In this document: positions 5,918-27,532 of the stretch, in pieces
Position numbering within the stretch: the stretch's first letter is position 1
Layout of the letters: every line of letters starts with the position of its first letter
From: Candidatus Syntropharchaeum caldarium
GTDB taxonomy: Archaea; Halobacteriota; Syntropharchaeia; Syntropharchaeales; Syntropharchaeaceae
Assembly (NCBI GenBank): GCA_001766815.1
Contig: LYOS01000001.1
Coordinates: 270,001-302,000, forward strand
DNA: 32,000 nt
Reading direction: 5' to 3'
Notes under the pieces: model-generated
The model's input: the letters and a program-made list of their open reading frames with translations, nothing else
The model's database searches: none
Told to the model about the DNA's origin: nothing
Position numbers and translations under genes: made by a program

Positions 5918-8209
5918 TTATTGCACTTTGATTCTAAGATATACCACCCCGACAAGCCCGGCCAAAATCAGACCGATAACGATAAGCACCACAGACCAGC
6001 TCATATGAGGCATTTCTGGTTTTTCACTGATTCCATCTGCTACTGCGGTCGCTGTCGGAGTGGCTGAGGCAGTAGCTGTAGGTGTAGGAGTCCAGGCAGG
6101 CGTAGACGTTGGTGCTGGAGTAGAGGTCACAATGGGAGTTGGTACAACAATATTGAACGTATCTGTATCTGTGTGTCCATTTTGATCATCCACCTCCACG
6201 GTGTAGGTGCCTGTTACAGCTTCCAGGGTCTCAAAGACTGCCATGAATCTGCCATTTTTAACTTCAGCGAGCTTTTTTCCAAGATCCATTGTACCATAGA
6301 CTCTGACCGCAACCGAGTACCCCTCTCTATTTGAAGATCCTGTTACAACTATATCATCGCCGATCACAACATCATCGATCGGATCAAGCTCAACCGAACT
6401 CTCCCTAACCTCAATCTCAATCATCTTCATGATGTCATCGCTTCCAGCTCCTGAGGTTATATCCCTTATTATCGCATCAAGCTCATCCTGCATCTTTCCG
6501 GCTAAGTTCATAAGATCTCCGCCGGCATATCTATCCTTTAGACCATCAAGAAGATAGGATGATCCTGTTCTACCATAGACCCCATCTTTTCCAGGAACAA
6601 GGACAAAGATAAGATATTCTCCCTCGTCTGCATCATCCTGAATATCGATCTCAAACGAGAACCTGCTATCTTCATCTGATGTTGATTCGATGTAGTGTGT
6701 GATCCCAGTTGGGAGTCCATCGAGACCTGAATCAGAAGGATTTAAACCATCTCCACCACCACCCTCAGGCGAGATCGCAATGAGATCAACAGCATCAAAG
6801 CCCGGTGCATAACCTGTGAGCTTCAGTGTATCACCGCGTGCGATAAGTGAAGGGTGATCATCCAGACTCAGATCTCCTTCAACCATCGTAACGATACCCA
6901 TGCCATCCTCGCTCAGATCTTTCACATTATCGCCCACCGCAAGCCCTTCATCGATGAATACGCGAATTTCAATATCACCCTCTACGGTTGTCCCATGTGT
7001 CTGGGGCGTTGGAAGTTCCTCACTGAACCTTCCGCTGCTATCAACCGGGATATCGGTCATAACAACAAGATCCTCGATCGCTATGTCAACCGTATTTCCA
7101 GCATTAACTGTCCCGTTGATCCTGAGATCCTCACCGATCACACAGGTATCTGGTAGATCCAGAACTGCCTTCTTTTTAACAACCGATACATCCAGAGAAT
7201 CCATCTCACCGCTCGTTAAATCCTGAACCTCAATCGTGTATGAGCCAGACCTCGTAAAGTAGATTGAGTACACATTCTCACCATCAACATCATCAAGCTC
7301 ATCCGTGAAAGACCCGATCATCTCCTCGTGTGGGTTATCATTGACACCCGGTGGGAATATGGCAAACTCACCACCTCTTCCAACCGAGATGTTTATACTA
7401 TTATCAGGCGCACCTGTCACGGTCAGCTTGAACCTCTCAAGTTCTGCAACTTTCTCCCGCTCTGTTTCAAGTTTGATCTCGCTCTTCACAATCTCAAGCT
7501 TCTTTACATCGCTCTTCTCTGAGAACCCCCGTGCGTACTCCTCCTCAGTAAGGATCCTGAACTCATACTCACCAAGATCCCATCCTGTTGTATTTATCAG
7601 AAGATCCTCAAGGTGCTCAACATTCACATGATCGAAGACCGTTCCATCTGCAGGATTTGTCTTTAATATATCGCCTGTTGGATTTTTAACCTCAAGGGTC
7701 ACACCATCATACGGATCTAGTGAATTTTTGAAATCTATCGTGAAACCTGTACCCTGCGGAAGCTTCTTACCAGCGACCGATTTTGTTCCACGCTTGAGAT
7801 CCAGTTTGAAGGATGTACCTGTGACCTTGATCGTTGTGGGTTTGCATCCATCACAATCTGCAGTTGCGTTGTACTTACCTGTCTCCATATCTTCAGTTAC
7901 ATCAGTACCGAGCACACCATCAGCATCCGACTCCTCGCTCTCATCCTCTGCATCCCCGCTCAATCCCTCAAGGTTTACAATTCCACAGGGATAGCCCGTC
8001 TCATTAAAAAAGTGCACCTCCTGACCCTTGATGATCGTTGCATCCTCTCCATCAAGATAGACTGTAACATTATCTTGATTCACTCTGAAGTATGTTCCCT
8101 GGCTCTCTATCACCTGTGTTTCTGGAATTATGGATGCAGATGCCACCATGGGAGTTAACAGTATAAATATTATGATCAAAAGCAATATGGCTCTCTGTAT
8201 TTTTATCAT
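5918..8209 (-). CDS. Large acidic secreted surface protein (S-layer-like) with a Thr/Pro linker and C-terminal membrane anchor
   Basis: 763 aa. It has an N-terminal signal peptide (MIKIQRAILLLIIIFILLTPMVASA) and a very acidic, Asp/Glu/Gly/Thr-rich body. Next come a PTPIVTSTPAPTSTPAWTPTPTATASATPTATA linker, the motif HMSWS, a transmembrane helix and a basic tail. I did not recognise an enzymatic motif. Confidence 0.7.
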   Translation of the reverse strand: MIKIQRAILLLIIIFILLTPMVASASIIPETQVIESQGTYFRVNQDNVTVYLDGEDATIIKGQEVHFFNETGYPCGIVNLEGLSGDAEDESEESDADGVLGTDVTEDMETGKYNATADCDGCKPTTIKVTGTSFKLDLKRGTKSVAGKKLPQGTGFTIDFKNSLDPYDGVTLEVKNPTGDILKTNPADGTVFDHVNVEHLEDLLINTTGWDLGEYEFRILTEEEYARGFSEKSDVKKLEIVKSEIKLETEREKVAELERFKLTVTGAPDNSINISVGRGGEFAIFPPGVNDNPHEEMIGSFTDELDDVDGENVYSIYFTRSGSYTIEVQDLTSGEMDSLDVSVVKKKAVLDLPDTCVIGEDLRINGTVNAGNTVDIAIEDLVVMTDIPVDSSGRFSEELPTPQTHGTTVEGDIEIRVFIDEGLAVGDNVKDLSEDGMGIVTMVEGDLSLDDHPSLIARGDTLKLTGYAPGFDAVDLIAISPEGGGGDGLNPSDSGLDGLPTGITHYIESTSDEDSRFSFEIDIQDDADEGEYLIFVLVPGKDGVYGRTGSSYLLDGLKDRYAGGDLMNLAGKMQDELDAIIRDITSGAGSDDIMKMIEIEVRESSVELDPIDDVVIGDDIVVTGSSNREGYSVAVRVYGTMDLGKKLAEVKNGRFMAVFETLEAVTGTYTVEVDDQNGHTDTDTFNIVVPTPIVTSTPAPTSTPAWTPTPTATASATPTATAVADGISEKPEMPHMSWSVVLIVIGLILAGLVGVVYLRIKVQ

Positions 8210-8270: not shown

Positions 8271-8301
8271 GATTTTAGTAAGATTAAATAAATCATAAAC
8301 C

Positions 8302-8316
8302 AAAAACTTTATTAAT
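8302..8316 (+). promoter_or_regulatory. Shared promoter cassette (BRE/TATA) for the anchored cohesin gene
   Basis: Exact 15-mer AAAAACTTTATTAAT. TAAGAGG starts exactly 26 nt after its last base, followed by a GAGGTG Shine-Dalgarno and the ATG at 8361. Confidence 0.55.
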
Positions 8317-8360
8317 AAAATAGATACGTTTAGAATTATGATAAGAGGTATGAGGTGCTG

Positions 8361-9575
8361 ATGATGCGAAAAGTTGGAAAGAATTTCATTATTATATCTG
8401 CTGTGCTTATATTGTTCATCACACAGTTCTCAGTAGCACTGGCAGAAGATACAAAGGTGAGTGTGAGTGCACCCGATGAGGTAAAGCCGGGTGATGTATT
8501 CAGTGCGTATATCATGATAGAGGATGTTACGGATTTTGTTGCAGGACAGTTTGATCTGAGCTTTGATTCGGATGTCATTACCGTGGTTGATGTTAAGAAC
8601 GGTGAGATAGAGAGTCAGGATGTTCCGATTCTTGCATGGAACTTCAAACCTGGAACTGATAACTATCTCAGGGTTGTATATGATCTTCCAGGTGCTGATG
8701 GTGTGAGTGGTTCAGGATATCTTGCAGAGATCATCTTTGAGGTTAAGGGTGCTGATGGGGATACAAGCAGCATAGAGATCTCAAATCTACAGCTCGGTAA
8801 CAAGAATGCAGAGGAGATTACAGCAGACTGGTCGAGCGGTGAAGTTAAGGTGGATGCCTCTGCAACACCCCAGCCAACAACAATTCAGGAGTCAACCTAT
8901 CAGGGAAGTTCTGGATATGCATTCAATGAAACTGAAACGAGCGGTGAGGCGACGATCACAACGAGTGAAAAAGTCACAAGATCGATTCCGGCTATTCAGG
9001 CAGGAACAAAGACCTCTGTTGTATTCAGTGATATGGATATCTCGATGATTACACTTGAGGTGGATCAGGATCTTTCCAATATTGAACTTTCGATGCAACC
9101 TCGGGATCTGCCCAGAGAGATACCTGAACCTGACGGAGTACTCTATAGCTCTTACGAGATAAAAGCAGAAGAGCTGGATGGAGTAGAAGTAACCGCAACG
9201 ATCGATTTCAGGGTTTTAAAGTCATGGATTGAAGAAAACAGTATAGATAAGGCAACGATCACGCTGAACCGCTATCACAATGGTAAGTGGCAGGAACTTC
9301 CAACTTTCATGGCAGGAGAAGATGAGAATTTTGTCAACTACCAGGCAGAGAGTACTGGTTTCTCGTACTTTGCGATAACAGGGGAGGTGGTTACCGGATC
9401 AGAGATGACACCTGCATCAAGGGATGCCACATCAACACCGATACCCACGACAACATCCCTCGAAGCAGAATCGACTGCTGGAACTGAGATAACGTGGGGT
9501 GTGATTATTGCAGCTATTCTTCTAACTGCTGTGATCTGTGCGGCAGTATTCATATTCCTCTCAAAGAGAAAGTAG
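8361..9575 (+). CDS. Membrane-anchored cohesin protein (signal peptide, one cohesin, PGF-pre-PGF-like domain, Thr-rich linker, C-terminal TM)
   Basis: The ORF-track entry begins at GTG 8355. ATG 8361/8364 behind the GAGGTG Shine-Dalgarno is the more likely start. Cohesin-like module at about 8445-8858 (GQFDLSFDSDVITVVDVKNGEI...LPGADGVSGSGYLAEIIFEVKGADGDTSSIEISN). Domain at about 8973-9387 ending ITLNRYHNGKWQELPT...ESTGFSYFAITGE, which from memory resembles the archaeal PGF-pre-PGF domain. C-terminus: STPIPTTTS...EITWGVIIAAILLTAVICAAVFIFLSKRK. Confidence 0.8.
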   Translation: MMRKVGKNFIIISAVLILFITQFSVALAEDTKVSVSAPDEVKPGDVFSAYIMIEDVTDFVAGQFDLSFDSDVITVVDVKNGEIESQDVPILAWNFKPGTDNYLRVVYDLPGADGVSGSGYLAEIIFEVKGADGDTSSIEISNLQLGNKNAEEITADWSSGEVKVDASATPQPTTIQESTYQGSSGYAFNETETSGEATITTSEKVTRSIPAIQAGTKTSVVFSDMDISMITLEVDQDLSNIELSMQPRDLPREIPEPDGVLYSSYEIKAEELDGVEVTATIDFRVLKSWIEENSIDKATITLNRYHNGKWQELPTFMAGEDENFVNYQAESTGFSYFAITGEVVTGSEMTPASRDATSTPIPTTTSLEAESTAGTEITWGVIIAAILLTAVICAAVFIFLSKRK

Positions 9576-9625: not shown

Positions 9626-9691
9626 AACCCTGGTATTTTTAATGAGTATCTTATAATAGATAAAAATCAAAGACTTAATGTTACCAAATCC

Positions 9692-9706
9692 GAAAAGTTT
9701 ATTAAC
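9692..9706 (+). promoter_or_regulatory. Shared promoter cassette for the scaffoldin operon
   Basis: GAAAAGTTTATTAAC. TAAGAG starts exactly 26 nt after its last base, followed by a GGAGGAG Shine-Dalgarno (9741-9747) and the GTG at 9753. Confidence 0.5.
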
Positions 9707-9752
9707 TAATAAGTTGATTCGAAATACATTTTAAGAGTTAGGAGGAGTATAT

Positions 9753-11654
9753 GTGATAAAAGGTAAGATAGATGCAGTGGTGCTTGTGGCAGTTATGCTA
9801 CTTGCGCCAGTGGCGTATGCAGGTATGATGGGGAGCGTTGCAGCAACGAATATCCCAACAGTTACAGTCAGCGTGCCCGAGTATATCTCCGGAAGCTTCG
9901 AGGCAACGATCGAGGTGGAGGATGTTTCCAATCTCAACTCAGGGCAGTTTGACCTGACATTTGATCCGACCGTGATCAATGTGACAGATGTACTTGATGG
10001 TGAGATCGATGGTGTGACGATCCCGATCGATATGTGGGAGTTTATGAGTGATGATACGGTAAGGGTCCTCTTCAAGTTACCCGATGTTGATACTGCGAGT
10101 GGCTCAGGGTACCTTGCAAAGATCAGTTTCAAGGTGAAAGGGGAAGACGGTGATGCGAGCGAGCTTGAGATCTCAGAGGGATTGCTGGTTGACGTGGAGG
10201 CAGAAGATATCAACTCGGAATGGAATGATGCTGCGGTAACTGTTCTATGGCCGACGGTGCGTGTTAACACTCCCGAATATGTAACCACGAGCTTCGATAC
10301 CACAATCGAGGTGGAGGATATTTCTAATCTCAACTCAGGGCAGTTCGACCTGACATTTGATCCAGACGTGATCAATGTGACAGATGTACTTGATGGTGAG
10401 ATTGATGGCGTGACGATCCCGATCGATATGTGGGAGTTTATGAGTGATGATACGGTAAGGGTCCTCTTCAAGTTACCCGATGTTGATACTGCGAGTGGTT
10501 CAGGGTACCTTGCAAAGATAAACTTTGAGGTGAAAGGAGAGAATGGTGATACAAGTGAGCTTACAATCTCAGAGGGATTGCTGGTAGACTATGATGGGGA
10601 GGGAATGGATGCAAACTGGAATGGCGCTGCACTCACCGTTGCAATGGGTCCCTCAGTAACGATCAACGCTCCAGCAGCAGCATCAGATAGCTTTGAGGTT
10701 CAGGTCGAGATAGATGATGTGGAAGATCTCGATGCAGCCCAGTTTGATCTGAGCTTTGATCCGAATCTGCTCGCGGTTACATCCGTAAGCGATGGTGAGA
10801 TAGATGGTGAAGCTGTACCTGTTAAAAAGTGGAGCCTCGACCCGGCTGATCCAGGCAAACTCAGGGTGGTTCTCGATCTTCCAGGCGTTAAAGGTGTGAG
10901 CGGTTCAGGTGTGCTTGCAAGAATCGGTTTCGATCCTGTAGGGGATGGTGTGAGCGAGCTTGTACTCGATAATGTGACGCTGGGCGATATCAATGCAGAT
11001 GATATCAAAGGGGTACGGCTTGAAAGCTCAACAGTGGAGGTTACTCTACCCAGACCCGGTGGAACGGTCATATCAATCAGTGATATTGCAGCCATAGGGA
11101 CGATCACAGTACCGATTACAATCGAGAACGCCACGAATGTCGGCTCATGCGATCTGACTTTGAGTTATGATCCTACGATCGTTATCGTATCAGATGTTGG
11201 GGGAGGTGAGTTCGATAGCCTTCAGGCAAACCTTGAGGATGCATCTGATGGTATCATCCGAATCGGTACATACCAGACATCAAGCCCGGGCCTCAATGGC
11301 GACGTCGTACTTGCAGAGGTTACCCTCATGACAATGGGTGATATAGAGTCATCCACCACGCTTGATCTTGAGGTTACAACCCTGAAAGACGCAACGCCCG
11401 AATGCAACCCAATTCCATGCCTTGTCGAGGATGGAAGCTTCACCGTGCTTTTGAAGGGTGATGCAAACGGTGATGGCAGGATAGATATGGCAGATTGTAT
11501 GTATCTTGCGAAGAATATCCTGGGTATCAGCGGTTTTGAGCAAATCGTTGAGGCGGCTGTGGATGTCAACGGTGACGGTGAGATCGATATGGCAGATTGC
11601 ATGTATCTCGCAAAACACATCCTCGATATTGCTGGGTTTGAGGAGCTTAAGTGA
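9753..11654 (+). CDS. Secreted scaffoldin-like protein: four cohesin modules plus a C-terminal canonical dockerin
   Basis: 633 aa with a signal peptide. Modules 1 and 2 (about 9855-10250 and 10251-10646) are near-identical. Module 3 (about 10647-11036) is related to them; all three share the hallmark [SA][GA]QFDL[ST]FDP...DGEIDG...SGSG.LA.I.F. Module 4 (about 11037-11440) belongs to a different class (NVGSCDLTLSYDP...LKDATPECNPIP). The C-terminus (11454-11651) has two dockerin repeats: GDANGDGRIDMADCMYLAKNILGI and VDVNGDGEIDMADCMYLAKHILDI. Confidence 0.85.
   Translation: MIKGKIDAVVLVAVMLLAPVAYAGMMGSVAATNIPTVTVSVPEYISGSFEATIEVEDVSNLNSGQFDLTFDPTVINVTDVLDGEIDGVTIPIDMWEFMSDDTVRVLFKLPDVDTASGSGYLAKISFKVKGEDGDASELEISEGLLVDVEAEDINSEWNDAAVTVLWPTVRVNTPEYVTTSFDTTIEVEDISNLNSGQFDLTFDPDVINVTDVLDGEIDGVTIPIDMWEFMSDDTVRVLFKLPDVDTASGSGYLAKINFEVKGENGDTSELTISEGLLVDYDGEGMDANWNGAALTVAMGPSVTINAPAAASDSFEVQVEIDDVEDLDAAQFDLSFDPNLLAVTSVSDGEIDGEAVPVKKWSLDPADPGKLRVVLDLPGVKGVSGSGVLARIGFDPVGDGVSELVLDNVTLGDINADDIKGVRLESSTVEVTLPRPGGTVISISDIAAIGTITVPITIENATNVGSCDLTLSYDPTIVIVSDVGGGEFDSLQANLEDASDGIIRIGTYQTSSPGLNGDVVLAEVTLMTMGDIESSTTLDLEVTTLKDATPECNPIPCLVEDGSFTVLLKGDANGDGRIDMADCMYLAKNILGISGFEQIVEAAVDVNGDGEIDMADCMYLAKHILDIAGFEELK
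9855..10646 (+). repeat. Tandem 396-bp (132-codon) duplication: cohesin modules 1 and 2
   Basis: ATCGAGGTGGAGGAT occurs at 9909 and 10305, an offset of 396 nt. By eye there are about 9 mismatches over the next 215 nt or so, including a perfectly identical run of about 89 nt (GTGACGATCCCGATCGATATGTGGGAG...GATACTGCGAGTGG). Confidence 0.85.
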
Positions 11655-11661
11655 GGTGGTT

Positions 11662-12816
11662 ATGAAGATAGTAGCTTTCCTGTTTGCTATCTGCCTGCTG
11701 GGGTTATCTATAGGCACGGTGGCATCAGCAGGTGAGTGCAGGGTTGTGGTGGAAGATCTCAGAGTGACATCAGAGACTGTTAATATTCCTGTGAGGATTA
11801 TGGACGCAGAGAAGATCGGTTCATGTGACCTGATTCTCACCTTCAACCCATCCTCCTTCATTGTAACAGATATCACAGCAGGGGATTTTGATACGACCAT
11901 CTGGAACCTTGAGACTGCAAACTCAGGTCAGGTGAGAATCGGTGGATTCCAGACCACAAGCGATGGACTTGATGGAGAAGTTCTCGTTGCGACGATCGTC
12001 TTCGAGCGTGTGGGGGGAGACTCAACTCCAATCAACATTCAGGTTAAAACCCTGAAGGATGCAACACCTGCCTGCAATCCGATCCCCTATACGATCGAGA
12101 ACGGGAGACTATTCACAGGAGGATCCGACTACATCGGAAGCAGAGGGTACGGAGATCTTCCCATCTCAACCCACAGCATCAATACGACAGAGGTTACAAG
12201 ACGGATTCCCCTGATCGAGGCTGGCAGGGAAGCTTCTGTGATCTTCAGGGATATGGTAATCTCGATGATAACGATCCTGACAGAAGAGGATCTGAGGGAT
12301 ATTGCACTATCTCTTCAGGAGTTTGATGGAAAGCCACCTGTTACATCTACTCCTGATGCTATTCCCTATGCCTACTTTGAGATAGAAGCGGATGGCTTGA
12401 ACACAGCAGACGTAAAGGCAGGGATCAGTTTCAGGGTTCCACAGTCATGGATCTATGAGAACAAAATCGATGCGCAAACGATCACGTTGAACCAATACAA
12501 TGGCGGATGGATCTCGCTTCCAACTGTCAGGATCGATGACGATGATGAGTTTATTACATTCAAATCAGAGACGAGTGAGTTCTCCTACTTTGTGATAACA
12601 GGTGAGAGGATGGAATCAACTGGACAGGTTGAATCATCAACTGAGATTGACAGAAGCAATACAGTAACTTCCAGGCCAACACCGATGACAGGCGAGGCGG
12701 GGGCAACTCCTGCACAGCCAGCATCTTTGAGCTGGAGCTATGTGCTCCTTGCTGTAATCGGAACGATACTTGTATGTGGAGCGATATTCCTTGCGATCTC
12801 AAGAAGGAGGAGATAA
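11662..12816 (+). CDS. Membrane-anchored cohesin protein, second class (signal peptide, one cohesin, PGF-pre-PGF-like domain, C-terminal TM)
   Basis: The ORF-track entry 11506..12816 is trimmed to ATG 11662 (MKIVAFLFAICLLGLSIGTVASA), which has a GAGGTGG Shine-Dalgarno and lies 7 nt after the scaffoldin stop. The cohesin (about 11731-12115: KIGSCDLILTFNPSS...LKDATPACNPIP) matches scaffoldin module 4. The domain at about 12190-12606 (ITLNQYNGGWISLPT...ETSEFSYFVITGE) parallels the one in 8361..9575. C-terminus: SLSWSYVLLAVIGTILVCGAIFLAISRRRR. Confidence 0.8.
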   Translation: MKIVAFLFAICLLGLSIGTVASAGECRVVVEDLRVTSETVNIPVRIMDAEKIGSCDLILTFNPSSFIVTDITAGDFDTTIWNLETANSGQVRIGGFQTTSDGLDGEVLVATIVFERVGGDSTPINIQVKTLKDATPACNPIPYTIENGRLFTGGSDYIGSRGYGDLPISTHSINTTEVTRRIPLIEAGREASVIFRDMVISMITILTEEDLRDIALSLQEFDGKPPVTSTPDAIPYAYFEIEADGLNTADVKAGISFRVPQSWIYENKIDAQTITLNQYNGGWISLPTVRIDDDDEFITFKSETSEFSYFVITGERMESTGQVESSTEIDRSNTVTSRPTPMTGEAGATPAQPASLSWSYVLLAVIGTILVCGAIFLAISRRRR

Positions 12817-12822
12817 AACGAT

Positions 12823-12845
12823 CCGGGCGGAATCCCGGTTTTTAT
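12823..12845 (+). terminator. Hairpin plus T-tract after the cohesin operon
   Basis: CCGGG (12823-12827) pairs with CCCGG (12834-12838) around a 6-nt loop, followed by TTTTTATTT. Confidence 0.45.
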
Positions 12846-12876
12846 TTAATTTGAATGAAGTAAGGAGGTATGGCGA

Positions 12877-13139
12877 ATGAATCTGAATAAGATTGGTAGT
12901 TTAGCGATGGCAACTTTGATAGTCCTTGCGTCTGTTACGCTTCTGAGCATTGTGCCAGTATCGGCATCAGATGATTTCACATTGGGCATCTATGGCAATG
13001 CAAACCAGGATGATACAATCGATATGCGGGATGTCACAAAGATCGCACGGATGATCTGCTGGCTCGAGGATGAGGTGGATTTAGCAGATGCAAAGTACGA
13101 TGGGAATATAAATGTGCTTGATATAATCCAGACCGAGCT
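12877..13139 (+). repeat. Signal-peptide plus dockerin cassette, copy 1 (subtype 1)
   Basis: I count 6 mismatches in 263 nt against 18902-19164. Similarity ends abruptly after GAGCT, where the binding-protein domains begin. Confidence 0.9.
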
Positions 13140-14157
13140 GACCATTCTGCGGAGAGATAAAACTCTGACGGTAATCGATGATACCGGAGAGGCAGTAACA
13201 CTATCCAAGCCGGTAGAGAGCTTTGTGTATCATGGACATAACTCATACGTCTATGAAACACTGCGTGCAATCGGTGTAGCAGACAAGATCGTTGGTACCA
13301 GCGATCGATTCGTCACACCAGGCAAGTGCAGATATAGCGAGGCTTATTACCCCGAGCTCTGTGGTTTTACGAATGTTGGCATACTTAAATCACCTGACTA
13401 CGAAGTGGTAAACACGCTGAGACCGGATCTCGTGATTAGCGATGCAGAGGAGTACTACGACCGTACAAAGACGCCAGACATTCCTGTTATAGCCCTAGAT
13501 GTGAGACTTTCAAACTTCAGAGAGGCAACGATGAAATTCGGGTACATCTTCGATAGCGTGGAGAAGGCAGAGGAGTACATCAACTGGTATGACGGTTGGG
13601 AAGAAACGGTCAATGAGAAAGTCGAAACGATTTCAGATGATGAGAAGCCGCTGGTACTCATCTGTTACTACAAGCCAGGTACAACGTCATTCTCGATACC
13701 TGTCAGGGACCATTACAGAAGCGTGATGGTTCATGCAGCAGGAGGGAAATGCGTGGGAGATGAATTTGATGGTACGGGCTACGTTAAGGTAGATGCCGAA
13801 TGGGTGATAGACCGAAATCCAGATGTCATCATATTTTCAGGGGCAAACCAGTATGTCGGATATGATATCGAGGATCCATCAGATGCAATCGCACTGATAA
13901 ATGACTTCACAAGCCAACCTGAGCTTGCTGAGGTCAATGCGGTAAAGAACAACAGGGTGTATCTGGTAAGTCATTCGTTTATCCTTTGTGGGGGTGCAAG
14001 CGGTCTCATAGGCACGGTATACTACGCAAAATGGATGTATCCTGAGCTTTTCGCAGATATGGATGCACAGGAGATGCAGCAGGAGTTCGTGACAGACTTT
14101 CAGCATCTGGATCTGAATGTAGAGAACTGCTACTGTGTATATCCACCACCGGCCTGA
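12877..14157 (+). CDS. FecB/BtuF-type (iron-chelate/corrinoid class) ABC substrate-binding protein with an N-terminal dockerin
   Basis: 426 aa. Signal peptide ending VPVSA/SDD with no lipobox Cys. Dockerin at about 12991-13149 with two Ca-loop repeats (NANQDDTIDMRD..., DAKYDGNINVLD...). The remainder resembles the periplasmic-binding-protein type 2 fold (TLTVIDDTGEAVTLSKPVESFV..., RPDLVIS, DRNPDVIIFSG). An FecCD permease and an ATPase follow directly. Confidence 0.85.
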   Translation: MNLNKIGSLAMATLIVLASVTLLSIVPVSASDDFTLGIYGNANQDDTIDMRDVTKIARMICWLEDEVDLADAKYDGNINVLDIIQTELTILRRDKTLTVIDDTGEAVTLSKPVESFVYHGHNSYVYETLRAIGVADKIVGTSDRFVTPGKCRYSEAYYPELCGFTNVGILKSPDYEVVNTLRPDLVISDAEEYYDRTKTPDIPVIALDVRLSNFREATMKFGYIFDSVEKAEEYINWYDGWEETVNEKVETISDDEKPLVLICYYKPGTTSFSIPVRDHYRSVMVHAAGGKCVGDEFDGTGYVKVDAEWVIDRNPDVIIFSGANQYVGYDIEDPSDAIALINDFTSQPELAEVNAVKNNRVYLVSHSFILCGGASGLIGTVYYAKWMYPELFADMDAQEMQQEFVTDFQHLDLNVENCYCVYPPPA

Positions 14158-14161
14158 AGCT

Positions 14162-15238
14162 ATGAGTGCAGCAGAGATAACCGTGACGGATAGCGGTGCC
14201 CAGGAGGAATATAAAAAGTACATCGGGAGGAAGATTACATTTATCCTTTCCTCCTTCCTTCTTTTAATTCTCATCTTTGGCATATCCGCATCACTTGGAT
14301 CGGCAGATATAACGATATGGGATGCGTATGCTGCATTTCTTCATAGATTTTTCCCGGATCACTTCCATACAAGCTGGCTTGCAGATACATGCGTCTGGAA
14401 TCTGAGGCTTCCTCGCATCATGCTTGGCATCATCGCCGGTACCGGTCTTGCGATAGCAGGATCTGTGATGCAGGGGGTACTCAAGAATCCTCTTGCAAGT
14501 CCCTATACGCTTGGGATTTCAGCAGGTGCCGGTTTTGGCGCATCTCTTGCTATAATCGCAGGCGCAGGTTTTGTTGGAGGGGAGTATCTCATAATAGGAA
14601 ATGCTTTTGTCTTTGCAATCTTATGTTCATTCATCATCATCGGTTTTGCAAGCAGAAGAGGGGCGACACCTGAGACGATGATCCTTGCAGGTATCGCAAT
14701 TCTCTATATATTCTCTGCATCCACAACACTACTCCAGTACTTTGGCGAGGAGGAGGCTGTGGCACAATCGGTATTCTGGATGGTTGGTGATCTTGACAGG
14801 GCATCGTGGGGCAATGTAACGATGGCTGGTATCGTGGTTGCAGCCTGTGTCCCTTTACTTATGATAAAATCATGGGATCTCAATGCGCTGACTGCTGGTG
14901 ATGAGGCAGCACAGAGTATGGGTGTAAATGTTAAGCGTGTCAGAGTATTTACCATGCTGCTTGTAAGCCTTCTCGTTGCCAGCATCGTCTGCTTCACAGG
15001 TACGATCGGTTTCATAGGGCTTGTTGCACCGCATATAACGCGCATTGCCATTGGGGGGGATAATAGATTTTTACTTCCGGCATCAGGTCTGGCGGGTGCA
15101 GTGTTACTTGTTGGAGCGGATATCGTAGCAAGAAGAATTATTGCACCGGTTATTATCCCTGTGGGCGCGATTACAGCCTTTATGGGGGGTCCCCTGTTTT
15201 TGTATCTTATAATGAGAATGAGGAGGGAGTACTTTTGA
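14162..15238 (+). CDS. FecCD/BtuC-family ABC permease
   Basis: Polytopic membrane protein with the family-typical C-terminus GADIVARRIIAPVIIPVGAITAFMGGPLFLYLI. The start is trimmed to ATG 14162, 4 nt after the binding-protein stop. The ORF-track start 14135 would overlap that gene. Confidence 0.85.
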   Translation: MSAAEITVTDSGAQEEYKKYIGRKITFILSSFLLLILIFGISASLGSADITIWDAYAAFLHRFFPDHFHTSWLADTCVWNLRLPRIMLGIIAGTGLAIAGSVMQGVLKNPLASPYTLGISAGAGFGASLAIIAGAGFVGGEYLIIGNAFVFAILCSFIIIGFASRRGATPETMILAGIAILYIFSASTTLLQYFGEEEAVAQSVFWMVGDLDRASWGNVTMAGIVVAACVPLLMIKSWDLNALTAGDEAAQSMGVNVKRVRVFTMLLVSLLVASIVCFTGTIGFIGLVAPHITRIAIGGDNRFLLPASGLAGAVLLVGADIVARRIIAPVIIPVGAITAFMGGPLFLYLIMRMRREYF

Positions 15239-16008
15239 AACTTAAAGTAAACAATGTTGAATTCAGCTATAATAGCACGCCAGTTCTTGAAGATGTATCT
15301 ATGGAACTGGATCGATCAGAGATGCTCGGGATCGTTGGTCCGAATGGTGCTGGCAAATCCACGCTGATCCGGTGTATAGATAGGATCTTAAAGCCAACAC
15401 AGGGGAGCATTCATCTTGACGGGCAGGAAATAGAGGAGATGGGCATGATGGAGATCGCAAGGCACATCGGATATGTGCCGCAGAGTTATTCTGGTGTGTT
15501 TCCAGCAACGGTCTTTGATACGGTTCTTGTGGGCAGGCGCCCTCACATCGGATGGCGGAGCAGTGAATCAGACGAAGATAAGGTATGGGCGATACTGAAG
15601 ATGATGGGAATCGAGGATCTCGCCATGCGGGACTGGAGCGAGCTCAGCGGTGGTCAACAGCAGAAGGTGTTGATTGCAAGAGCGCTTGCCCAGGAGGCGG
15701 GCACGCTCTTACTCGATGAGCCCACTTCAAACCTTGACATAAGACACCAGATCGAGGTGATGGAAATCCTGAAGGATCTCGTGGAGAAAAAGGGGATCTC
15801 AGCGATAATGGCAGTCCATGACCTGAACCTTGCATCAAGATACACGGATCGTGTGATCATCATGAAAAACGGCAGAATATTTGACGCAGGCAGTCCCCTG
15901 GATGTCCTCACGCCTGAGAATATCAGATCGGTCTATGGCGTCGAGGTTGAGGTGGTCAACAGTAGCAGTGGAAAGCCACATATCGTGCCTGTGAGGTCTG
16001 TAACATAG
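15235..16008 (+). CDS. ABC ATPase, iron-chelate/cobalamin (FepC/BtuD) type
   Basis: Walker A GPNGAGKST, signature LSGGQQQK, Walker B LLLDEPTSNLD. The TTG start overlaps the permease stop (TTGA at 15235-15238), with an AGGAGGGA Shine-Dalgarno upstream. Confidence 0.9.
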   Translation: MKLKVNNVEFSYNSTPVLEDVSMELDRSEMLGIVGPNGAGKSTLIRCIDRILKPTQGSIHLDGQEIEEMGMMEIARHIGYVPQSYSGVFPATVFDTVLVGRRPHIGWRSSESDEDKVWAILKMMGIEDLAMRDWSELSGGQQQKVLIARALAQEAGTLLLDEPTSNLDIRHQIEVMEILKDLVEKKGISAIMAVHDLNLASRYTDRVIIMKNGRIFDAGSPLDVLTPENIRSVYGVEVEVVNSSSGKPHIVPVRSVT

Positions 16009-16044
16009 AAATGGGTCTGAGAGAATATCTGGGGGAAGTGAATC

Positions 16045-17633: not shown

Positions 17634-17832
17634 AGGTAAAAGATAGATCATATTACAATTTGGATCCTCTGAGATGGAATTTCCTTCGTGATGGATGTAA
17701 GGCTTGTGAATAGAAGGAAATAATAAATATGGAAACGACAAAAACTGAACTGAGGATAGGGGGCATGAGATCTGGCTTGAAAAACTGAAAAACAAAGGTT
17801 CAAGGGAATGCAGAAAGAGGTGAAGTGATAAG

Positions 17833-18780: not shown

Positions 18781-18837
18781 GAGAGTTCAAATGGTTTCAC
18801 TTAACAAGTTTTGATACTATTAAATAACACCAAAACC

Positions 18838-18852
18838 AAAAACTTTATTAAT
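18838..18852 (+). promoter_or_regulatory. Shared promoter cassette for the second SBP block
   Basis: Exact AAAAACTTTATTAAT. TAAGAGG starts exactly 26 nt after its last base, followed by a GGAGG Shine-Dalgarno and the ATG at 18902. Confidence 0.55.
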
Positions 18853-18901
18853 TAAGAATCCAATTCAATCACAATCTTAAGAGGAATGGAGGCTTTATTG
18901 A

Positions 18902-19164
18902 ATGAATCTGAATAAGATTGGTAGTTTAGCGATGGCAACTTTGATAGTCCTTGCGTCTGTTACGCTTCTGAGCATTGTGCCAGTATCGGCATCAGGTGAC
19001 TTCACATTGGGCATCTATGGCAATGCAAACCAGGATGATACGATCGATATGCGGGATGTCACAAAGATCGCACGGATGATCTGCTGGCTCGAGGATGAGG
19101 TGGAGTTAGCAGATGCGAAGTACGATGGGAATATAAATGTGCTTGATATAATCCAGACTGAGCT
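18902..19164 (+). repeat. Signal-peptide plus dockerin cassette, copy 2 (subtype 1)
   Basis: Near-identical to 12877-13139 (6 mismatches counted by eye). Confidence 0.9.
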
Positions 19165-20167
19165 TGTTATACTTGGAAGAGAGAAGGAGTTAACGGTTCT
19201 TGATTCTGCTGACAGGACGGTGACGGTTAAGGAGCCAGTTGAGAGGGTGGTTCCCCTTCACATGCGCCATGCAGGAACAGTCTGCGTGCTGGGTGCGGAT
19301 GATAAAGTGGTTGGCGTAGATAGTACGGTGATCTCACGCGGAAGGCTTTTTCCGGAACTCAGCACGCTGCCTTCCATTGGGACAGTACGGGTACCTGACC
19401 TGGAGCAGATATTGATGCTTAACCCGGATCTGATCATTACGTTCACAAACTTCCCTGACCCCGCCTCTCTTGAGGATAAGCTACCTGACACGGTATCTGT
19501 TATCCGTATGGACCTCTCAAGGGCAGATGATATACCAAGGGAGATGAAGATGCTTGGCTACATACTCGGCAGAGTCTCTGTGGCAGATGATTATATTGCC
19601 TGGTATGACGGGTATGTAGATGCGGTGAAGGAAAGGGTCTCAGCAATTCCAGCAGAGGAACGGGTCAACGTCTTTATGGAAAGGGAAAAGAAGACAGGGA
19701 AAGACCCACTTGTTCGATGGGCCTATGCATCAGGGACGGGATACACTGACCTATGTGCTGTGGCAGGTGGTATAAACATCGCGGAGGATTATATCGACTA
19801 TCACGGCGATGTCGAGACGGAATGGGTGGTTGACCAGAATCCAGATGTTATCATCGGATTATCCTACAAAGGTGGGTATGAGGTGGATGATGATACAGCG
19901 ATGAGGGAGTATTACGAGGAGATAATTGGTCTGCCAGGCTTTGAGAACGTCACCGCGGTTAAAGATGATCGAGTTCATATAATCTCGGGTGACTTCTCAA
20001 TCGGAGCACAGCTGCCCATCGGGATTGTAACGGTTGCAAAATGGTTCTATCCAGATAAATTCGAGGATCTTGATCCGGATGAGATTCACGAGGAGTTTCT
20101 CACGGAGTTTATGCAAATAGAGTACGATCTTGACGAATGGGGCGTGTTTGTGTACCCTGATATCTGA
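18902..20167 (+). CDS. Second FecB/BtuF-type ABC substrate-binding protein with an N-terminal dockerin (no adjacent permease)
   Basis: 421 aa. The first 88 aa or so are almost identical to 12877..14157 (signal peptide plus dockerin). The binding domain is diverged (ELTVLDSADRTVTVKEPVERVVPL..., NPDLIITF, DQNPDVIIGLS). Confidence 0.85.
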   Translation: MNLNKIGSLAMATLIVLASVTLLSIVPVSASGDFTLGIYGNANQDDTIDMRDVTKIARMICWLEDEVELADAKYDGNINVLDIIQTELVILGREKELTVLDSADRTVTVKEPVERVVPLHMRHAGTVCVLGADDKVVGVDSTVISRGRLFPELSTLPSIGTVRVPDLEQILMLNPDLIITFTNFPDPASLEDKLPDTVSVIRMDLSRADDIPREMKMLGYILGRVSVADDYIAWYDGYVDAVKERVSAIPAEERVNVFMEREKKTGKDPLVRWAYASGTGYTDLCAVAGGINIAEDYIDYHGDVETEWVVDQNPDVIIGLSYKGGYEVDDDTAMREYYEEIIGLPGFENVTAVKDDRVHIISGDFSIGAQLPIGIVTVAKWFYPDKFEDLDPDEIHEEFLTEFMQIEYDLDEWGVFVYPDI

Positions 20168-20208
20168 AAGATGCGATTAATTTGAATGAGGTAAGGAGGA
20201 ATTATTGA

Positions 20209-21948
20209 ATGAATCTGAATAAGATTGGTGGTTTGGCGATGGTAACTTTGATGGTGCTATCGATTCTACTGCCATTTACAGTTATGCCCGCGTCTGCAAC
20301 ACTCTTCGGTGATGCGAACACTGATACAACGATCGATATGCGGGATGTGACAAAGATCGCACGGATGATCTGCTGGCTCGATCCAGAGACAGACGCTGCA
20401 GATGCAAATAACGATGGATCTGTGAATGTGCTTGATATAATTTATACAGAGCTTATCATCCTTGAACGAGTGCCGTTTCCAGGTGGTGAACTCAGGGCAG
20501 CGATGATATTTGGGCCCAAAAGTGATTCACTCGATCCAGCTTACTCGTGGACAGGATGGTATGTGAGAAAAGCCGGGATTTACGAGACACTCTTCAGCTA
20601 TGACGAGAATATGAGACTTCAAGATGAGCTTGCAACAGGTTACAGCCAGATCAGCGATACCGAGTGGAGGATATACCTGCGAGACGGTGTCAGGTTCCAT
20701 GACGGCACACCACTAAACGCTGATGCCGTGATCTACTCCCTTGAGCGGGTGATGGATCCTTCAAACAGCAGGCACACACAGTACGACTTTATTGAGTCTG
20801 TATCAAAGTTTGATGAACACACGGTGACAATCATAACAAAAGAACCTTATGCCCCAACGATCGCAAGTTTGACAGATCCTGTGGTCTCGATCGTGAGTCC
20901 CGCGGCAAACGATCTCGCTCATAACCCTGTAGGTACAGGTCCGTTCAAGTTTGTCGACCATGAACAGGGTGTGAGTTTAACTGTTACAAGAAACGATGAC
21001 TACTGGGGTGGGGCTGTCAAGCTCGAGGGTGCGATCTTCTACTATGTGAGCGATCCATTGACAAGGTCACTCATGCTCGAGGGTGATGATGTCGATATCG
21101 CACGGGGTATACCACAGAGTGAGTACAATGAGATCGAGGATGATCCCGATCTCGAGGTTCTGACCAAAGAGACGCTTCGGACCTACTTCATGTATGTGAA
21201 TACGAGGAAAGCACCGCTTGATGATGTGAGGGTTAGACAGGCTATAAACTATTGCATCGATCGTGAAGAGATCGTTGATACAGCACTTGAAGGTGTCGGT
21301 GGCACGCCTACAAAGAGTGTCTTCCCATCGATTTTACCATGGTCTGCAAATGACGAGCTGGAGGGATACACGTTCAATCAGGCAGAAGCACTATCGCTAC
21401 TTGAAGCGGCTGGTATTACAGACACCGATGGCGATGGCTGGCTTGATTATAATGGTGAGACCTTTGAGCTTACGATAAAGACCTACACCAAGCGACCTGA
21501 GCTCCAGCCAACTGCTGAAGTGATGGTGAGCCAGCTTGAGGATATCGGGATCAAGGCAAGTGTGATTATCCTTGAAACAGGTGCTCTGAAGGCTGATATG
21601 AATGACGGTAACTTCGATCTTGCGCTCTATGCATGGGGTACCGCCCCGACAGGAGATCCGGACTACTTCCTCTCGTACCACTTTGAGTCAACAGGAAAGT
21701 ATGCGGGATGGACAGGTTATTCAAACCCTGATGTGGATAACTGGATAGAGCTTGGACGGAGAACGATGAACGAGGACGATCGATATGAGTACTATGCCAA
21801 TGTACAGGAGCAGATACTCGAGGACTCGCCAGAGATCTTTGTATTCTATCAGAACGAACTTGTAGGAGAGAATACACGGGTAATCGGCTATGAGATATTC
21901 CCGAACGAGATATCTTTCCTGACAAAGGATGTGTACATTGGAAAATAG
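20209..21948 (+). CDS. Family-5 (NikA/DppA/OppA-type) ABC substrate-binding protein with an N-terminal dockerin
   Basis: 579 aa. The signal peptide starts with the same MNLNKIGxLAM. Dockerin at about 20305-20469 (DANTDTTIDMRD..., DANNDGSVNVLD...). A typical family-5 core follows (LRDGVRFHDGTPLNADAVIYSLERV, NPVGTGPFKF). AAGGAGG Shine-Dalgarno upstream. Confidence 0.85.
   Translation: MNLNKIGGLAMVTLMVLSILLPFTVMPASATLFGDANTDTTIDMRDVTKIARMICWLDPETDAADANNDGSVNVLDIIYTELIILERVPFPGGELRAAMIFGPKSDSLDPAYSWTGWYVRKAGIYETLFSYDENMRLQDELATGYSQISDTEWRIYLRDGVRFHDGTPLNADAVIYSLERVMDPSNSRHTQYDFIESVSKFDEHTVTIITKEPYAPTIASLTDPVVSIVSPAANDLAHNPVGTGPFKFVDHEQGVSLTVTRNDDYWGGAVKLEGAIFYYVSDPLTRSLMLEGDDVDIARGIPQSEYNEIEDDPDLEVLTKETLRTYFMYVNTRKAPLDDVRVRQAINYCIDREEIVDTALEGVGGTPTKSVFPSILPWSANDELEGYTFNQAEALSLLEAAGITDTDGDGWLDYNGETFELTIKTYTKRPELQPTAEVMVSQLEDIGIKASVIILETGALKADMNDGNFDLALYAWGTAPTGDPDYFLSYHFESTGKYAGWTGYSNPDVDNWIELGRRTMNEDDRYEYYANVQEQILEDSPEIFVFYQNELVGENTRVIGYEIFPNEISFLTKDVYIGK
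20305..20469 (+). repeat. Dockerin cassette, subtype 2, N-terminal copy
   Basis: Shares an identical 53-nt run (ATCGATATGCGGGATGTGACAAAGATCGCACGGATGATCTGCTGGCTCGATCC, from 20332) with 27389 onward, plus further similarity up to the ...TACAGAGCTTATCAT end. Confidence 0.85.
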
Positions 21949-22000: not shown

Positions 22001-22034
22001 ACCATTTTTATTTAATCTTCAATCTGGTGTTCTT

Positions 22035-24552: not shown

Positions 24553-24583
24553 ATTGAATAGTAGCATTTGGTAATACTAAAAC

Positions 24584-25801: not shown

Positions 25802-27532
25802 ATGAGAAAATTGCTGGTCTTTCTGATGCTGGCAGCACTTCTTGCAAGTGGGTTTGCAGGGATGCCGGCAGCAGCAGAAGATAAGAAGGTCTTGAAGATC
25901 GAAGGAGGAGATTACGGTTACCCATCCCCCTTCACATTCTATTCAAGAGGTCCGGGGTACATCAGGATGAGCCTCATCTTCGATACCTTGACATGGAAGG
26001 ATGATGAGGAGATAATACCGTGGCTTGCAAAGAGCTGGAAGTCTGAGAATGGCGGTATGAAATGGACGCTGTATCTCGAGGATGATGTGAGGTGGCATGA
26101 TGGCGAGCCGCTAACGGCAGATGATGTGAAGTTCACATACGAGTATATCAAGGATCATAGTGGAACCCCTCTCTTCAAATGGTTCAGTGTCCTGAACTAT
26201 ATGGATCATGTGGAGGCTCCCAATGATCGAACGGTTGTTGTAACCTTAACAGATCCGTTGCCATCCTTCTTGACCGACTTTGCTGGCTGCATCCCGATAA
26301 TTCCGGAGCACATCTGGAAGGATGTTTCAGATCCAACCAGATTCACAGATCCGGAAGCGGTTATCGGAAGTGGACCTTTCAAGCTTGCTGAGTACAACAA
26401 GGCTGAAGGTTACTACCTCTATGAGGCAAATGAGGACTACTTCAAGGGAGTGCCCCTCGTTGATGAGCTAATCCTCCTTGAGGTGGGTGATCCCGCACTT
26501 GCACTAAGCGCCGGGGAGATCGATGAGGCGAGCTTCTGGGGTAGTGAGATTGATGCGGTTGAGACGTTTGAAGCGGATCCGAACTTTGAGGTGATATCTG
26601 GTCCAAGTTTCTGGGTGCTGAAGACGATCTTCAACTGCGAGAAGTACCCGACAAATATACCGGATTTCAGAAGAGCAATAGCATACGGGATAGACAGGGG
26701 TGAAATCATCGATCAGGTGGTGCACGGTGGTGCGATAGTCGCAAACACAGGTATTCTTCATCCGGACTCAAGCTGGTATATGCCAGGCCTTCCGGATTAT
26801 GCGAAGAATGATGCAGTGGCAAATCAACTCCTCGATGATCTTGGCTTCATAGATACAGATGGTGATGGTATAAGAGAGTATCCATCTGGTGAAGATCTTG
26901 AGTTTGAGCTTTTGACAGGAGACAGGTTCGCACGTGAGGCAGAACTTATACAGGAGCAGCTTGAAGCGATCGGGATAAAGACGACCGTCAAGGCGATGAG
27001 TACAAAGACGCTTGACGCTATCCTCAAGGAGGGTAACTTCTACATTGCGGTATCAGGACATGGAGGGGTCGCAAATCCAAACCTGCTGGAGACACCAAAC
27101 TGGCCAGGGGACACGTATCATAACGACAGTTACGATTCGATCTTTCTGGAGCAGGAGACTGAGATGAACCATGCAAAGCGAAAGGATCTTGTGAATCAAC
27201 TGCAGGAAACGATCGCAAACGATTTACCTGTCTACACACTCTACCATCCGTTGATGTGGTCTGTTTACAATCCGGATAAGCTTGACAGGTGGTTCTATAC
27301 ACTGGATGGCGTCGCAACGGGCATACCGATTGAGATGAACAAGCTCATATTCTTTGCAAGGTTTGGCGATGCAAACGAGGACGGTGATATCGATATGCGG
27401 GATGTGACAAAGATCGCACGGATGATCTGCTGGCTCGATCCTGAGGCAGACGCTGCAGATGCGAACCGTGATGATAAGCTTAATGTGCTTGATATAATCT
27501 ATACAGAGCTTATCATACTTGGAAGGGTATAG
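25802..27532 (+). CDS. Family-5 (NikA/DppA/OppA-type) ABC substrate-binding protein with a C-terminal dockerin
   Basis: 576 aa. Signal peptide MRKLLVFLMLAALLASGFAGMPAAA with no Cys. Family-5 core (LEDDVRWHDGEPLTADDVKFTYEYI, IGSGPFKLAEY). The last 56 aa or so (27362-27529) are a dockerin: GDANEDGDIDMRDVTKIARMICWLDPEADAADANRDDKLNVLDIIYTELIILGRV. AAGGAGG Shine-Dalgarno upstream. Confidence 0.85.
   Translation: MRKLLVFLMLAALLASGFAGMPAAAEDKKVLKIEGGDYGYPSPFTFYSRGPGYIRMSLIFDTLTWKDDEEIIPWLAKSWKSENGGMKWTLYLEDDVRWHDGEPLTADDVKFTYEYIKDHSGTPLFKWFSVLNYMDHVEAPNDRTVVVTLTDPLPSFLTDFAGCIPIIPEHIWKDVSDPTRFTDPEAVIGSGPFKLAEYNKAEGYYLYEANEDYFKGVPLVDELILLEVGDPALALSAGEIDEASFWGSEIDAVETFEADPNFEVISGPSFWVLKTIFNCEKYPTNIPDFRRAIAYGIDRGEIIDQVVHGGAIVANTGILHPDSSWYMPGLPDYAKNDAVANQLLDDLGFIDTDGDGIREYPSGEDLEFELLTGDRFAREAELIQEQLEAIGIKTTVKAMSTKTLDAILKEGNFYIAVSGHGGVANPNLLETPNWPGDTYHNDSYDSIFLEQETEMNHAKRKDLVNQLQETIANDLPVYTLYHPLMWSVYNPDKLDRWFYTLDGVATGIPIEMNKLIFFARFGDANEDGDIDMRDVTKIARMICWLDPEADAADANRDDKLNVLDIIYTELIILGRV
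27362..27529 (+). repeat. Dockerin cassette, subtype 2, C-terminal copy
   Basis: Shares the 53-nt identical run with 20332 onward. The same module that is N-terminal in three other SBPs sits here at the extreme C-terminus. Confidence 0.85.

Follow-up and report, generated by a model that had tools for sequence, protein, structure and literature searches.

We analysed a stretch of 32,000 nucleotides (nt) from the alkane-oxidising archaeon Candidatus Syntropharchaeum caldarium (GenBank assembly GCA_001766815.1, contig LYOS01000001.1, positions 270,001 to 302,000 of the forward strand; hereafter, the window), which holds a cluster of cohesin and dockerin genes next to the genes of four ATP-binding cassette (ABC) importers. 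From 8.3 to 31.9 kb the window is coded almost wholly on the + strand, which is the strand of every window feature named below unless another is given. Lying there, in this order, are a cohesin-bearing anchor protein that we call A (8355..9575), a scaffoldin of 633 amino acids (aa; 9753..11654), a second anchor protein, B (11662..12816), and, downstream of B, the four ABC-importer operons, with one dockerin-bearing solute-binding protein (SBP) each. Scanning the window in six frames with hidden Markov models (HMMs) built from its own cohesin and dockerin modules yielded six cohesins, five dockerins and nothing further. The modules and motifs that an earlier note on this DNA had picked out are all present, by Pfam and by direct reading, where the note had placed them.

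The scaffoldin starts with a signal peptide, followed by four cohesins and a C-terminal dockerin of the Dockerin_1 family. By the HMM scan, the first three cohesins (c1, 9852-10247; c2, 10248-10643; c3, 10644-11051) belong to what we term class I and the fourth (c4, 11055-11450) to class II. The dockerin (11451-11651), whose two repeats are symmetric, abuts c4 without a linker (the junction SFTVL-LKGDANGDG has no spacer), and the two modules together make up a 'socket plus plug' end piece (11055..11651), here called the class II cassette, which we characterized using an AlphaFold2 (AF2) model, Foldseek and a survey of homologues. Protein A consists of a signal peptide, one class I cohesin (8448-8855), a PGF-pre-PGF domain (~9036-9383), a Thr/Pro-rich linker, a C-terminal transmembrane (TM) helix and a basic tail; B consists of a signal peptide, a class II cohesin (11734-12117), a PGF-pre-PGF domain (~12220-12603), a linker, a C-terminal TM helix and an RRRR tail. 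The PGF-pre-PGF match (TIGR04213, cut-off 28) reached 87.2 bits in A and 82.1 bits in B. No PGF-CTERM model of NCBIfam matched either protein at E <= 1e-3, and each ends in a plain hydrophobic helix with a tail of KRK or RRRR, without a PGF motif. Only 7 nt separate the scaffoldin stop from the B start (TGA-GGTGGTT-ATG, with the Shine-Dalgarno-like GAGGTGG across the junction). The exact protein B is also present in the Logan assembly of SRR3669912, on a 2.4-kb contig that breaks within the repeated cohesins, and a look-up of the exact scaffoldin sequence gave no record.

The four SBPs were typed with Pfam and NCBIfam, and their dockerins were located by the HMM scan. SBP1 (12877..14157) is a FecB/BtuF-type protein (Peripla_BP_2) with an N-terminal dockerin (12979-13158), SBP2 (18902..20167) a FecB-type protein (Peripla_BP_2) with an N-terminal dockerin (19004-19183), and SBP3 (20209..21948) a NikA/Opp5A-like protein (SBP_bac_5), again with an N-terminal dockerin (20299-20472). 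SBP4 (25802..27532) is NikA-like (SBP_bac_5) and bears the same type of dockerin at its C-terminus (27356-27529).

Against the Pfam Cohesin family (PF00963, gathering cut-off 24.1 bits), A scored 50 bits, the scaffoldin 141 bits over four stretches and B 26 bits. The division of these cohesins into two classes, as proposed in the earlier note, was borne out both by clustering on identity and by leave-one-out HMMs. Pairwise identity is 36-80% among the class I cohesins (A, c1, c2 and c3) and 41-42.5% between the class II cohesins (c4 and B), compared with 21-27% between the classes. When left out of their own model, the class I domains scored 110-204 bits to class I and 25-35 bits to class II (A: 131.7 and 27.2 bits), while c4 and B scored 102-105 bits to class II and 31-33 bits to class I; in the window scan, with the full class models, A reached 216 bits (class I) and B 234 bits (class II). 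The classes are also unlike in their strand-3 and strand-8 signatures, c4 and B having in common the class II signature GSCDL...TLKDATPxCNPIP.

The AF2 model of c4 with its dockerin (pLDDT 93.1, pTM 0.74) is all-beta over residues 1-131, and in this model c4, the cohesin assessed in this way, is a confident cohesin fold with a predicted nine-stranded beta jelly-roll. Essentially all of its top 50 Foldseek matches in the PDB are cohesins. The best match in both structure and sequence, though the similarity is distant, is the non-cellulosomal cohesin 2XDH of Archaeoglobus fulgidus (27% identity, TM-score 0.78; phmmer E = 5e-4). Type I cohesins aligned to c4 with TM-scores of 0.72-0.79, versus 0.5-0.56 for cohesins of types II and III; on this fold comparison, which fits type I and the A. 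fulgidus cohesin better, we rejected the notion that our class II is the type II cohesin of cellulosomes. No PDB chain found by Foldseek aligned across both c4 and the dockerin, as a structure of an X-module joined to a dockerin (X-Doc) would.

Both EF-hand-like repeats are discernible in all five dockerins, and the family match is uneven: against Pfam Dockerin_1 (PF00404, cut-off 22.9 bits) the scaffoldin dockerin (47.6 bits) and that of SBP3 (23.8 bits) lie above the cut-off, SBP4 scored 17.3 bits, and no match was reported for SBP1 and SBP2, which have K in place of N at loop position 3 of repeat 2. When a profile of eight SBP dockerins was compared with the PDB, its top matches were dockerins only (from Clostridium (Acetivibrio) thermocellum, E = 1.6e-4 to 1e-3), and we therefore accepted the SBP modules as divergent dockerins. 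The earlier note had sorted the five dockerins into three classes, a division that we do not uphold: they are best described as two major classes, that of the scaffoldin dockerin and that of the SBP dockerins, the latter divided into two subtypes. Identity among the four SBP dockerins is 67-95% overall (81-95% within a subtype, 67-72% between the FecB- and Nik-type subtypes), and the subtypes score 89-99 bits to each other, yet only 14-23 bits against the scaffoldin dockerin. Dockerin specificity is usually set by positions 10, 11, 17 and 18 of each repeat. At these positions all four SBP dockerins have the same residues (MR/AR and VL/EL), and their first helix, IDMRDVTKIARMICWL, is identical; the subtypes differ in the calcium loops, in the inter-repeat linker and at positions 15 and 19 of helix 2. 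The scaffoldin dockerin, in contrast, differs from the SBP dockerins at every canonical recognition position. The symmetry of the repeats likewise sets the two classes apart, the repeats of the scaffoldin dockerin agreeing at 19 of 24 positions and those of the SBP dockerins at 5-6 of 24. Symmetric repeats are associated with dual-mode binding, and asymmetric repeats with a single mode.

The SBP dockerins are far more conserved than their cargo, as would be expected for modules with a common partner. In SBP1 and SBP2, signal peptide plus dockerin are 95.7% identical, compared with 35.4% for the cargo domain, and in SBP3 and SBP4 the dockerins are 81% identical, compared with 29.6% for the cargo. 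Underlying this similarity are DNA repeats of 162-300 nt (76-93% identity) between the SBP genes. The signal peptide and dockerin of SBP1 (12875-13174) and SBP2 (18900-19199) are 92% identical at the DNA level, the ribosome-binding site and signal-peptide start of SBP3 (20188-20258) are common with SBP1 and SBP2, and the same dockerin repeat recurs at the C-terminus of SBP4 (27364-27525). The signal peptide and dockerin thus behave as a mobile cassette among SBP genes. All four SBPs carry cleavable signal peptides but neither a lipobox cysteine nor a TM segment nor a PGF-CTERM anchor, which leaves the dockerin as the only visible feature that could retain them at the cell; a family named as PGF-CTERM-anchored is among the closest relatives of the FecB-type SBPs in NCBIfam.

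A single genome matched the locus, a metagenome-assembled genome (MAG) of Candidatus Syntrophoarchaeum (locus L002), whose scaffoldin is 89-92% identical to that of the window. Two orthologues of 631 aa (P0002 and P0003) have the same layout of three class I cohesins, one class II cohesin and a dockerin. In L002 itself the scaffoldin is 499 aa long (10001-11500), its first cohesin being a chimera of c1 and c2, a short form common to three MAG proteins (P0004, P0006 and P0007). The only FecB-type SBP of L002 (12724-13989) is likewise a chimera, of SBP1 and SBP2, and the 6-kb block corresponding to 12877-18780 is missing. Having one class I cohesin and one SBP operon fewer, L002 might be taken for a case of covariation, a reading that we rejected: both differences fall on direct repeats (300 nt at 88% and 92% identity) and the genes are chimeric, so that they look like deletions by recombination or effects of the assembly. 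The earlier note had remarked that the window's class I cohesins equal its dockerin-bearing SBPs in number. The count, four of each, is right for the window and is not conserved elsewhere: four class I cohesins stand against two dockerin-SBPs in L003 (in the 19 kb read), three against four in L009, and three against three in L002. As the counts do not track across loci, the equality is not a rule.

A wider view was provided by the 120 best homologues of the scaffoldin, nearly all of which are tandem class I arrays. They come from the anaerobic methanotrophic archaea (ANME) ANME-1 and ANME-2, from Methanosarcinales and from Syntropharchaeales, and many have an N-terminal dockerin. In two ANME-2 loci such arrays stand beside dockerin-bearing SBPs. 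In one of these (L008), the scaffoldin has four class I cohesins and is accompanied by a 404-aa cohesin protein and by ABC genes with their Nik-type SBP, which bears at its C-terminus a dockerin that scores 69.5 bits as one of the SBP class. In the other (L009), the scaffoldin has three class I cohesins, and after it come four FecB-type SBPs in tandem, each bearing at its N-terminus a dockerin whose second helix, INMQDVTQIELIILG, matches that of the window's SBP dockerins. No class II cohesin was found in either locus. We also observed that the two ANME-2 scaffoldins (8770-9984 of L008 and 9983-11428 of L009) carry an N-terminal dockerin fitting neither class of the window, and that the cohesin of the 404-aa protein, encoded 5' of the scaffoldin in L008, fits class I weakly (23 bits); this dockerin and the weak cohesin may represent a third specificity that does the anchoring job of class II.

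The class II cohesins, for their part, keep company with one another. A gene ending in a class II cohesin and a dockerin, followed by a gene for an anchor made up of signal peptide, class II cohesin and TM helix, was found in five loci (the window, L003, L004, L010 and L011), the gap between the two genes ranging from an overlap to 14 nt. L003 and L004 belong to another Syntrophoarchaeum-like lineage (scaffoldin 81% identical), and in L011 the cargo cohesins are of another class (YGAQYELNFDP), while the cassette, the dockerin type and the class II anchor are kept. A homologue search with the cohesin of B alone gave no matches; in its place we searched 1.84 billion representative proteins with a class II profile, which gave 148 matches at E < 1e-30. 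The 67 representatives with a strong class II cohesin were taken as the survey set. In 36 of them a dockerin is fused directly to the class II cohesin (gap of -5 to +4 aa, mostly 0), in seven it lies further downstream, and 24 have none, of which 22 are short proteins with a signal peptide, the cohesin, a C-terminal TM helix and a basic tail. The cargo upstream of the cassette in the other proteins comprises FlgD_ig, Big_5, CARDB, PKD, LTD, NosD/beta-helix or Ig-like domains, or more cohesins, and never an SBP; none was present among the 43 proteins combining a class II cohesin with a dockerin.

In two of the five loci the cohesin of the cassette and that of the adjoining anchor are nearly the same. 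They are 76.5% identical in L011 (300 nt at 95%) and 72% in L010 (300 nt at 81%), so the same dockerin would be expected for both. Positional counterparts of different loci are 36-55% identical, and cassette and anchor cohesins interleave in a neighbour-joining tree; such homogenisation within a genome argues for one common specificity in those two organisms. One further protein (P0125, 229 aa, on a 1.6-kb contig), made up of a signal peptide, a class II cohesin and a dockerin, looked like a minimal chaining protein. We rejected it as a probable assembly chimera: its N-terminus matches the anchor of L011 (3406-4233) and its C-terminus the scaffoldin of L011 (1729-3399), across the near-identical cohesins.

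We propose that the locus encodes a two-level, membrane-anchored cohesin-dockerin assembly that displays the SBPs of four ABC importers at the archaeal surface, a reading we hold to be probable, with room for serious doubt. In an archaeon without an outer membrane, the assembly would retain these SBPs at the cell surface. The SBP dockerins would plug into the class I cohesins of A and of c1-c3 of the scaffoldin, probably in a single binding mode via their conserved second helix (NVLDIIxTELxIL). The scaffoldin dockerin, in turn, would plug into the class II cohesin of B, by which up to three SBPs would be tied to the membrane, while A would hold one SBP directly. The likely substrates would be trace metals or cofactors, the SBPs being of Ni-type and Fe/corrinoid-type. 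The hierarchy, which the earlier note had suggested, gains comparative support from the ANME-2 class I arrays beside dockerin-SBPs and from the cassette-anchor gene pair of the five loci; the pairing of modules stays a prediction. The note had also suggested head-to-tail chaining, in which c4 would take the dockerin of another scaffoldin or cassette protein and units would stack outward from B. Chaining is plausible given the conserved, linker-less cassette and the 72-77% identity of cassette and anchor cohesins in two relatives, and we put it forward tentatively, as something that may well not hold here.

Several points weigh against these proposals. The evidence for pairing is guilt by association throughout, dockerins or cohesins elsewhere in the genome, beyond the window, may be the true partners, and the numbers of cohesins and SBPs are unlinked across loci. 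As for chaining, identity is only 42.5% between c4 and B, and 38.6% between the two corresponding cohesins of L003, values no higher than those between cassettes and anchors of different genomes, and the repeat search of the window found no DNA repeat joining c4 and B; a common specificity is therefore not assured in this window. Moreover, the pTM of 0.74 fits a rigid didomain, a cis-docked form or a loose tether alike. Partners, indeed, cannot be assigned from sequence alone, and the pairing could be crossed, with the SBP dockerins binding B and c4, and the scaffoldin dockerin binding A (also a membrane anchor, which could hold the scaffoldin) and c1-c3, to give a branching scaffoldin network with few SBPs. 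We consider this highly improbable: the ANME-2 dockerin-SBPs lie beside class I arrays with no class II cohesin nearby, the cassette gene and its class II anchor persist as a pair in L011 though class I has been replaced, SBPs are absent from the class II/dockerin proteins, and two sockets would have to serve four SBPs. Nor do we give much credence to promiscuous binding, whereby all five dockerins would bind all six cohesins and the classes would merely record ancestry. Such binding has a precedent in Sca3 and Sca4 of Ruminococcus bromii, which bind all four GH13 dockerins, but here the dockerin classes differ at every canonical position and in their symmetry, the cohesin classes differ in their strand-3 and strand-8 signatures, and the dockerins are held constant while the cargo diverges.

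The remaining alternatives concern the cassette. A simple hierarchy without chaining, in which the scaffoldin dockerin binds B, and c4 either recruits a different dockerin protein, encoded elsewhere, or chiefly braces its neighbour, is possible, if doubtful. In type II X-dockerins, an X-module rigidly supports the dockerin, and the conserved linker-less join of cohesin and dockerin resembles such a tight X-Doc unit; the pTM suggests some fixed orientation of the domains, and the low identities of c4 to B and within L003 would allow the specificities to have split. Yet c4 keeps the full cohesin fold and the class signature common with B, no Foldseek match spans both domains in the X-Doc manner, and the cassette cohesins of L010 and L011 hardly differ from the respective anchor cohesins over strands 3-8, a likeness that a purely structural role would not readily explain. 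The two modules could also be closed in cis, the dockerin sitting on its own neighbouring cohesin until B displaces it. Both are in one chain and the intermediate pTM is compatible with a packed state, but the absence of a spacer, conserved in most cassette representatives (gap 0 +/- 1 aa), would leave the dockerin little freedom to fold back onto the binding face, and we deem this closure most unlikely. Finally, the class II/dockerin layer might serve adhesion, to a sulfate-reducing partner or to the S-layer, its adjacency to transporters being incidental. The domains carried by other cassette proteins (FlgD_ig, Big_5, CARDB, PKD, LTD and NosD) would suit such a role, a part in adhesion has been suggested by Chadwick et al. 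and by Timmers et al., and a gene with a weak match to an S-layer family adjoins the locus. The cassette of this scaffoldin, however, carries three class I cohesins as its cargo, and the SBPs are without other means of retention, which makes adhesion a rather unlikely explanation here.

The proposed display of SBPs on a two-level scaffold resembles the cellulosome in several respects. C. thermocellum has the primary scaffoldin CipA, the second-specificity anchors SdbA, OlpB and Orf2p, and OlpA, an anchor with a cargo-type cohesin. As in its CipA/SdbA/OlpA system, two specificities (here predicted ones), a scaffoldin with several cargo cohesins and one dockerin of the second specificity, an anchor with a cohesin of the second specificity, another anchor with a cargo-type cohesin, and clustered genes are found together. 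In contrast to the cellulosome, the cargo here consists of SBPs (no glycoside hydrolase or carbohydrate-binding module was found in the locus), anchoring is by a C-terminal TM helix and PGF-pre-PGF rather than by SLH domains or sortase, and the dockerin is preceded by a cohesin, not an X-module, so that the scaffoldin itself bears an anchor-type cohesin. Among archaea, the cohesin-dockerin pair of A. fulgidus is functional and has been used in designer cellulosomes. Its proteins, too, combine cohesin and dockerin in one chain, and we know of no SBP cargo on them. A further parallel, to the cassette as a possible self-binding unit, is Amy4 of R. bromii, in which a cohesin and a dockerin reside in one protein and self-recognition has been demonstrated (PMC4611034). 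Like Amy4, the scaffoldin has both modules in one polypeptide, with the potential to multimerise and to dock to a cell-surface anchor; unlike it, the scaffoldin is predicted rather than known to bind itself, and the modules of Amy4, whose cargo is an amylase, are not a conserved linker-less cassette.

Among the closest known systems are those of ANME. Chadwick et al. 2022 (PMC9012536) reported proteins with one dockerin and up to five cohesins in ANME-1, ANME-2a and ANME-2c, named the periplasmic components of ABC transporters (NikA/OppA and TroA types) as common carriers of dockerins, and stated that the pairings were still to be determined; Timmers et al. 2017 had noted the abundance of cohesins and dockerins. 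The general kind of system, scaffoldin-like proteins together with dockerin-SBPs, is thus already known from ANME. The locus described here is like those systems in having one dockerin and several cohesins in one protein, and dockerins on NikA/OppA- and metal-type SBPs, and it comes from the same wider archaeal group. It differs in that the scaffoldin dockerin is C-terminal and preceded by a second class of cohesin, with a matching TM anchor adjoining; in the ANME-2 relatives that we examined, the dockerin is N-terminal and of a different type, and the locus is without class II cohesins. Descriptions of the linker-less class II cassette, of its dedicated TM anchors, of the concerted evolution of cassette and anchor cohesins, or of the cassette on virus-like contigs were not found in the literature searched.

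In archaea bounded by a single membrane, transporter receptors need a tether, and a modular plug-and-socket scaffold in place of a lipid or TM anchor would let the cell concentrate, exchange and perhaps extend its receptors for scarce metals and cofactors. Demand for nickel and cobalt is high in organisms running several MCR-type enzymes. Cohesin and dockerin domains are very numerous in ANME and related archaea (Timmers 2017, Chadwick 2022), and the locus offers a compact set of six cohesins and five dockerins on which partner rules can be tested. If the cassette does stack, nature would have in it an uncomplicated way of building a protein display that extends itself, synthetic scaffolds could draw on it as a thermostable part, and it could help to explain extracellular matrices and virus attachment in syntrophic consortia.

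The cassette also occurs in a virus-like setting. Three virus-like contigs encode proteins of ~340 aa that are 45-50% identical to the window cassette (L005, 10001-11026; L006, 9940-10947; L007, 4753-5760), each made up of a divergent cohesin-like domain, a class II cohesin and a symmetric dockerin. Their neighbour genes encode Terminase_6C, Phage_Mu_F, Gp77, Gp3-like, HNH and ERCC4 proteins, with a NosD/beta-helix gene, tail-fibre-like in kind, directly upstream, and a 2026 ISME J paper described a NosD-like gene beside a dockerin domain on one viral contig. Scanning IMG/VR with the cassette alignment gave no confirmed match and a fold search of BFVD nothing informative, so that the viral context comes solely from the neighbour genes of these three metagenome contigs. 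It is conceivable, if speculative, that the class II cassette is a general module of ANME and alkane-oxidising archaea, each protein docked on a membrane-anchored class II cohesin offering an identical socket to the next in open-ended chains that grow outward, and that viruses of these archaea plug into these chains or remodel them. The proteins so stacked may include SBP scaffoldins, adhesins of Ig-, PKD- or CARDB-type, and NosD-like beta-helix proteins.

Turning to the regulation of the locus, a promoter-like element with BRE/TATA character (TFB recognition element and TATA box) lies 5' of the scaffoldin (9687..9746). It emerged from two direct-repeat families (D4 and D9) and has further copies 5' of A (8297-8356), 5' of SBP2 (18833-18892) and 5' of a CooC-like gene that precedes SBP4 (24579-24638); in the four copies its sequence is AAACCAAAAACTTTATTAAT ... 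TAAGAGG. The copies of A and SBP2 are alike for 47 nt more upstream (8273-8319 and 18809-18855). The element is a putative archaeal promoter, and its recurrence at these four places points to co-regulation of the scaffold with the transporter units. A scan for bacterial sigma-70 promoters was set aside, having no meaning for an archaeon. On the 3' side of B, a hairpin followed by a T-run (12823..12848), a match to a terminator-like consensus only, is a possible end of the scaffoldin-B transcript.

Several other genes accompany the scaffold and the importers. Directly 5' of SBP4, behind its own copy of the promoter-like element, lie the CooC-like gene, encoding a CbiA/CooC/MinD-type P-loop ATPase (24646-25404), and a gene for a small flavin-reductase-like protein (25401-25787), a pair that may link metal or cofactor handling to the Nik-type transporter. 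On the other flank, diverging from the adjoining gene of A, a gene on the - strand (5918-8209) encodes a surface protein of 763 aa without cohesin or dockerin, in which Ig-like repeats and a Thr/Pro-rich linker lie between a signal peptide and a C-terminal TM helix. Its similarity to an S-layer glycoprotein family is weak (51 bits, far under the cut-off), and the protein is kept in L002 and L003. Between A and the scaffoldin, L003 has a DUF2330 gene (6030-7271) that is absent from the window and from L002. Each SBP/ABC unit of the window is accompanied by one or two SAM (S-adenosylmethionine) methyltransferases of the Methyltransf_11 type (16045-16854, 16851-17633, 21981-22790 and 31097-31918), and the order of SBP, methyltransferase and permeases recurs in L003 and L004.

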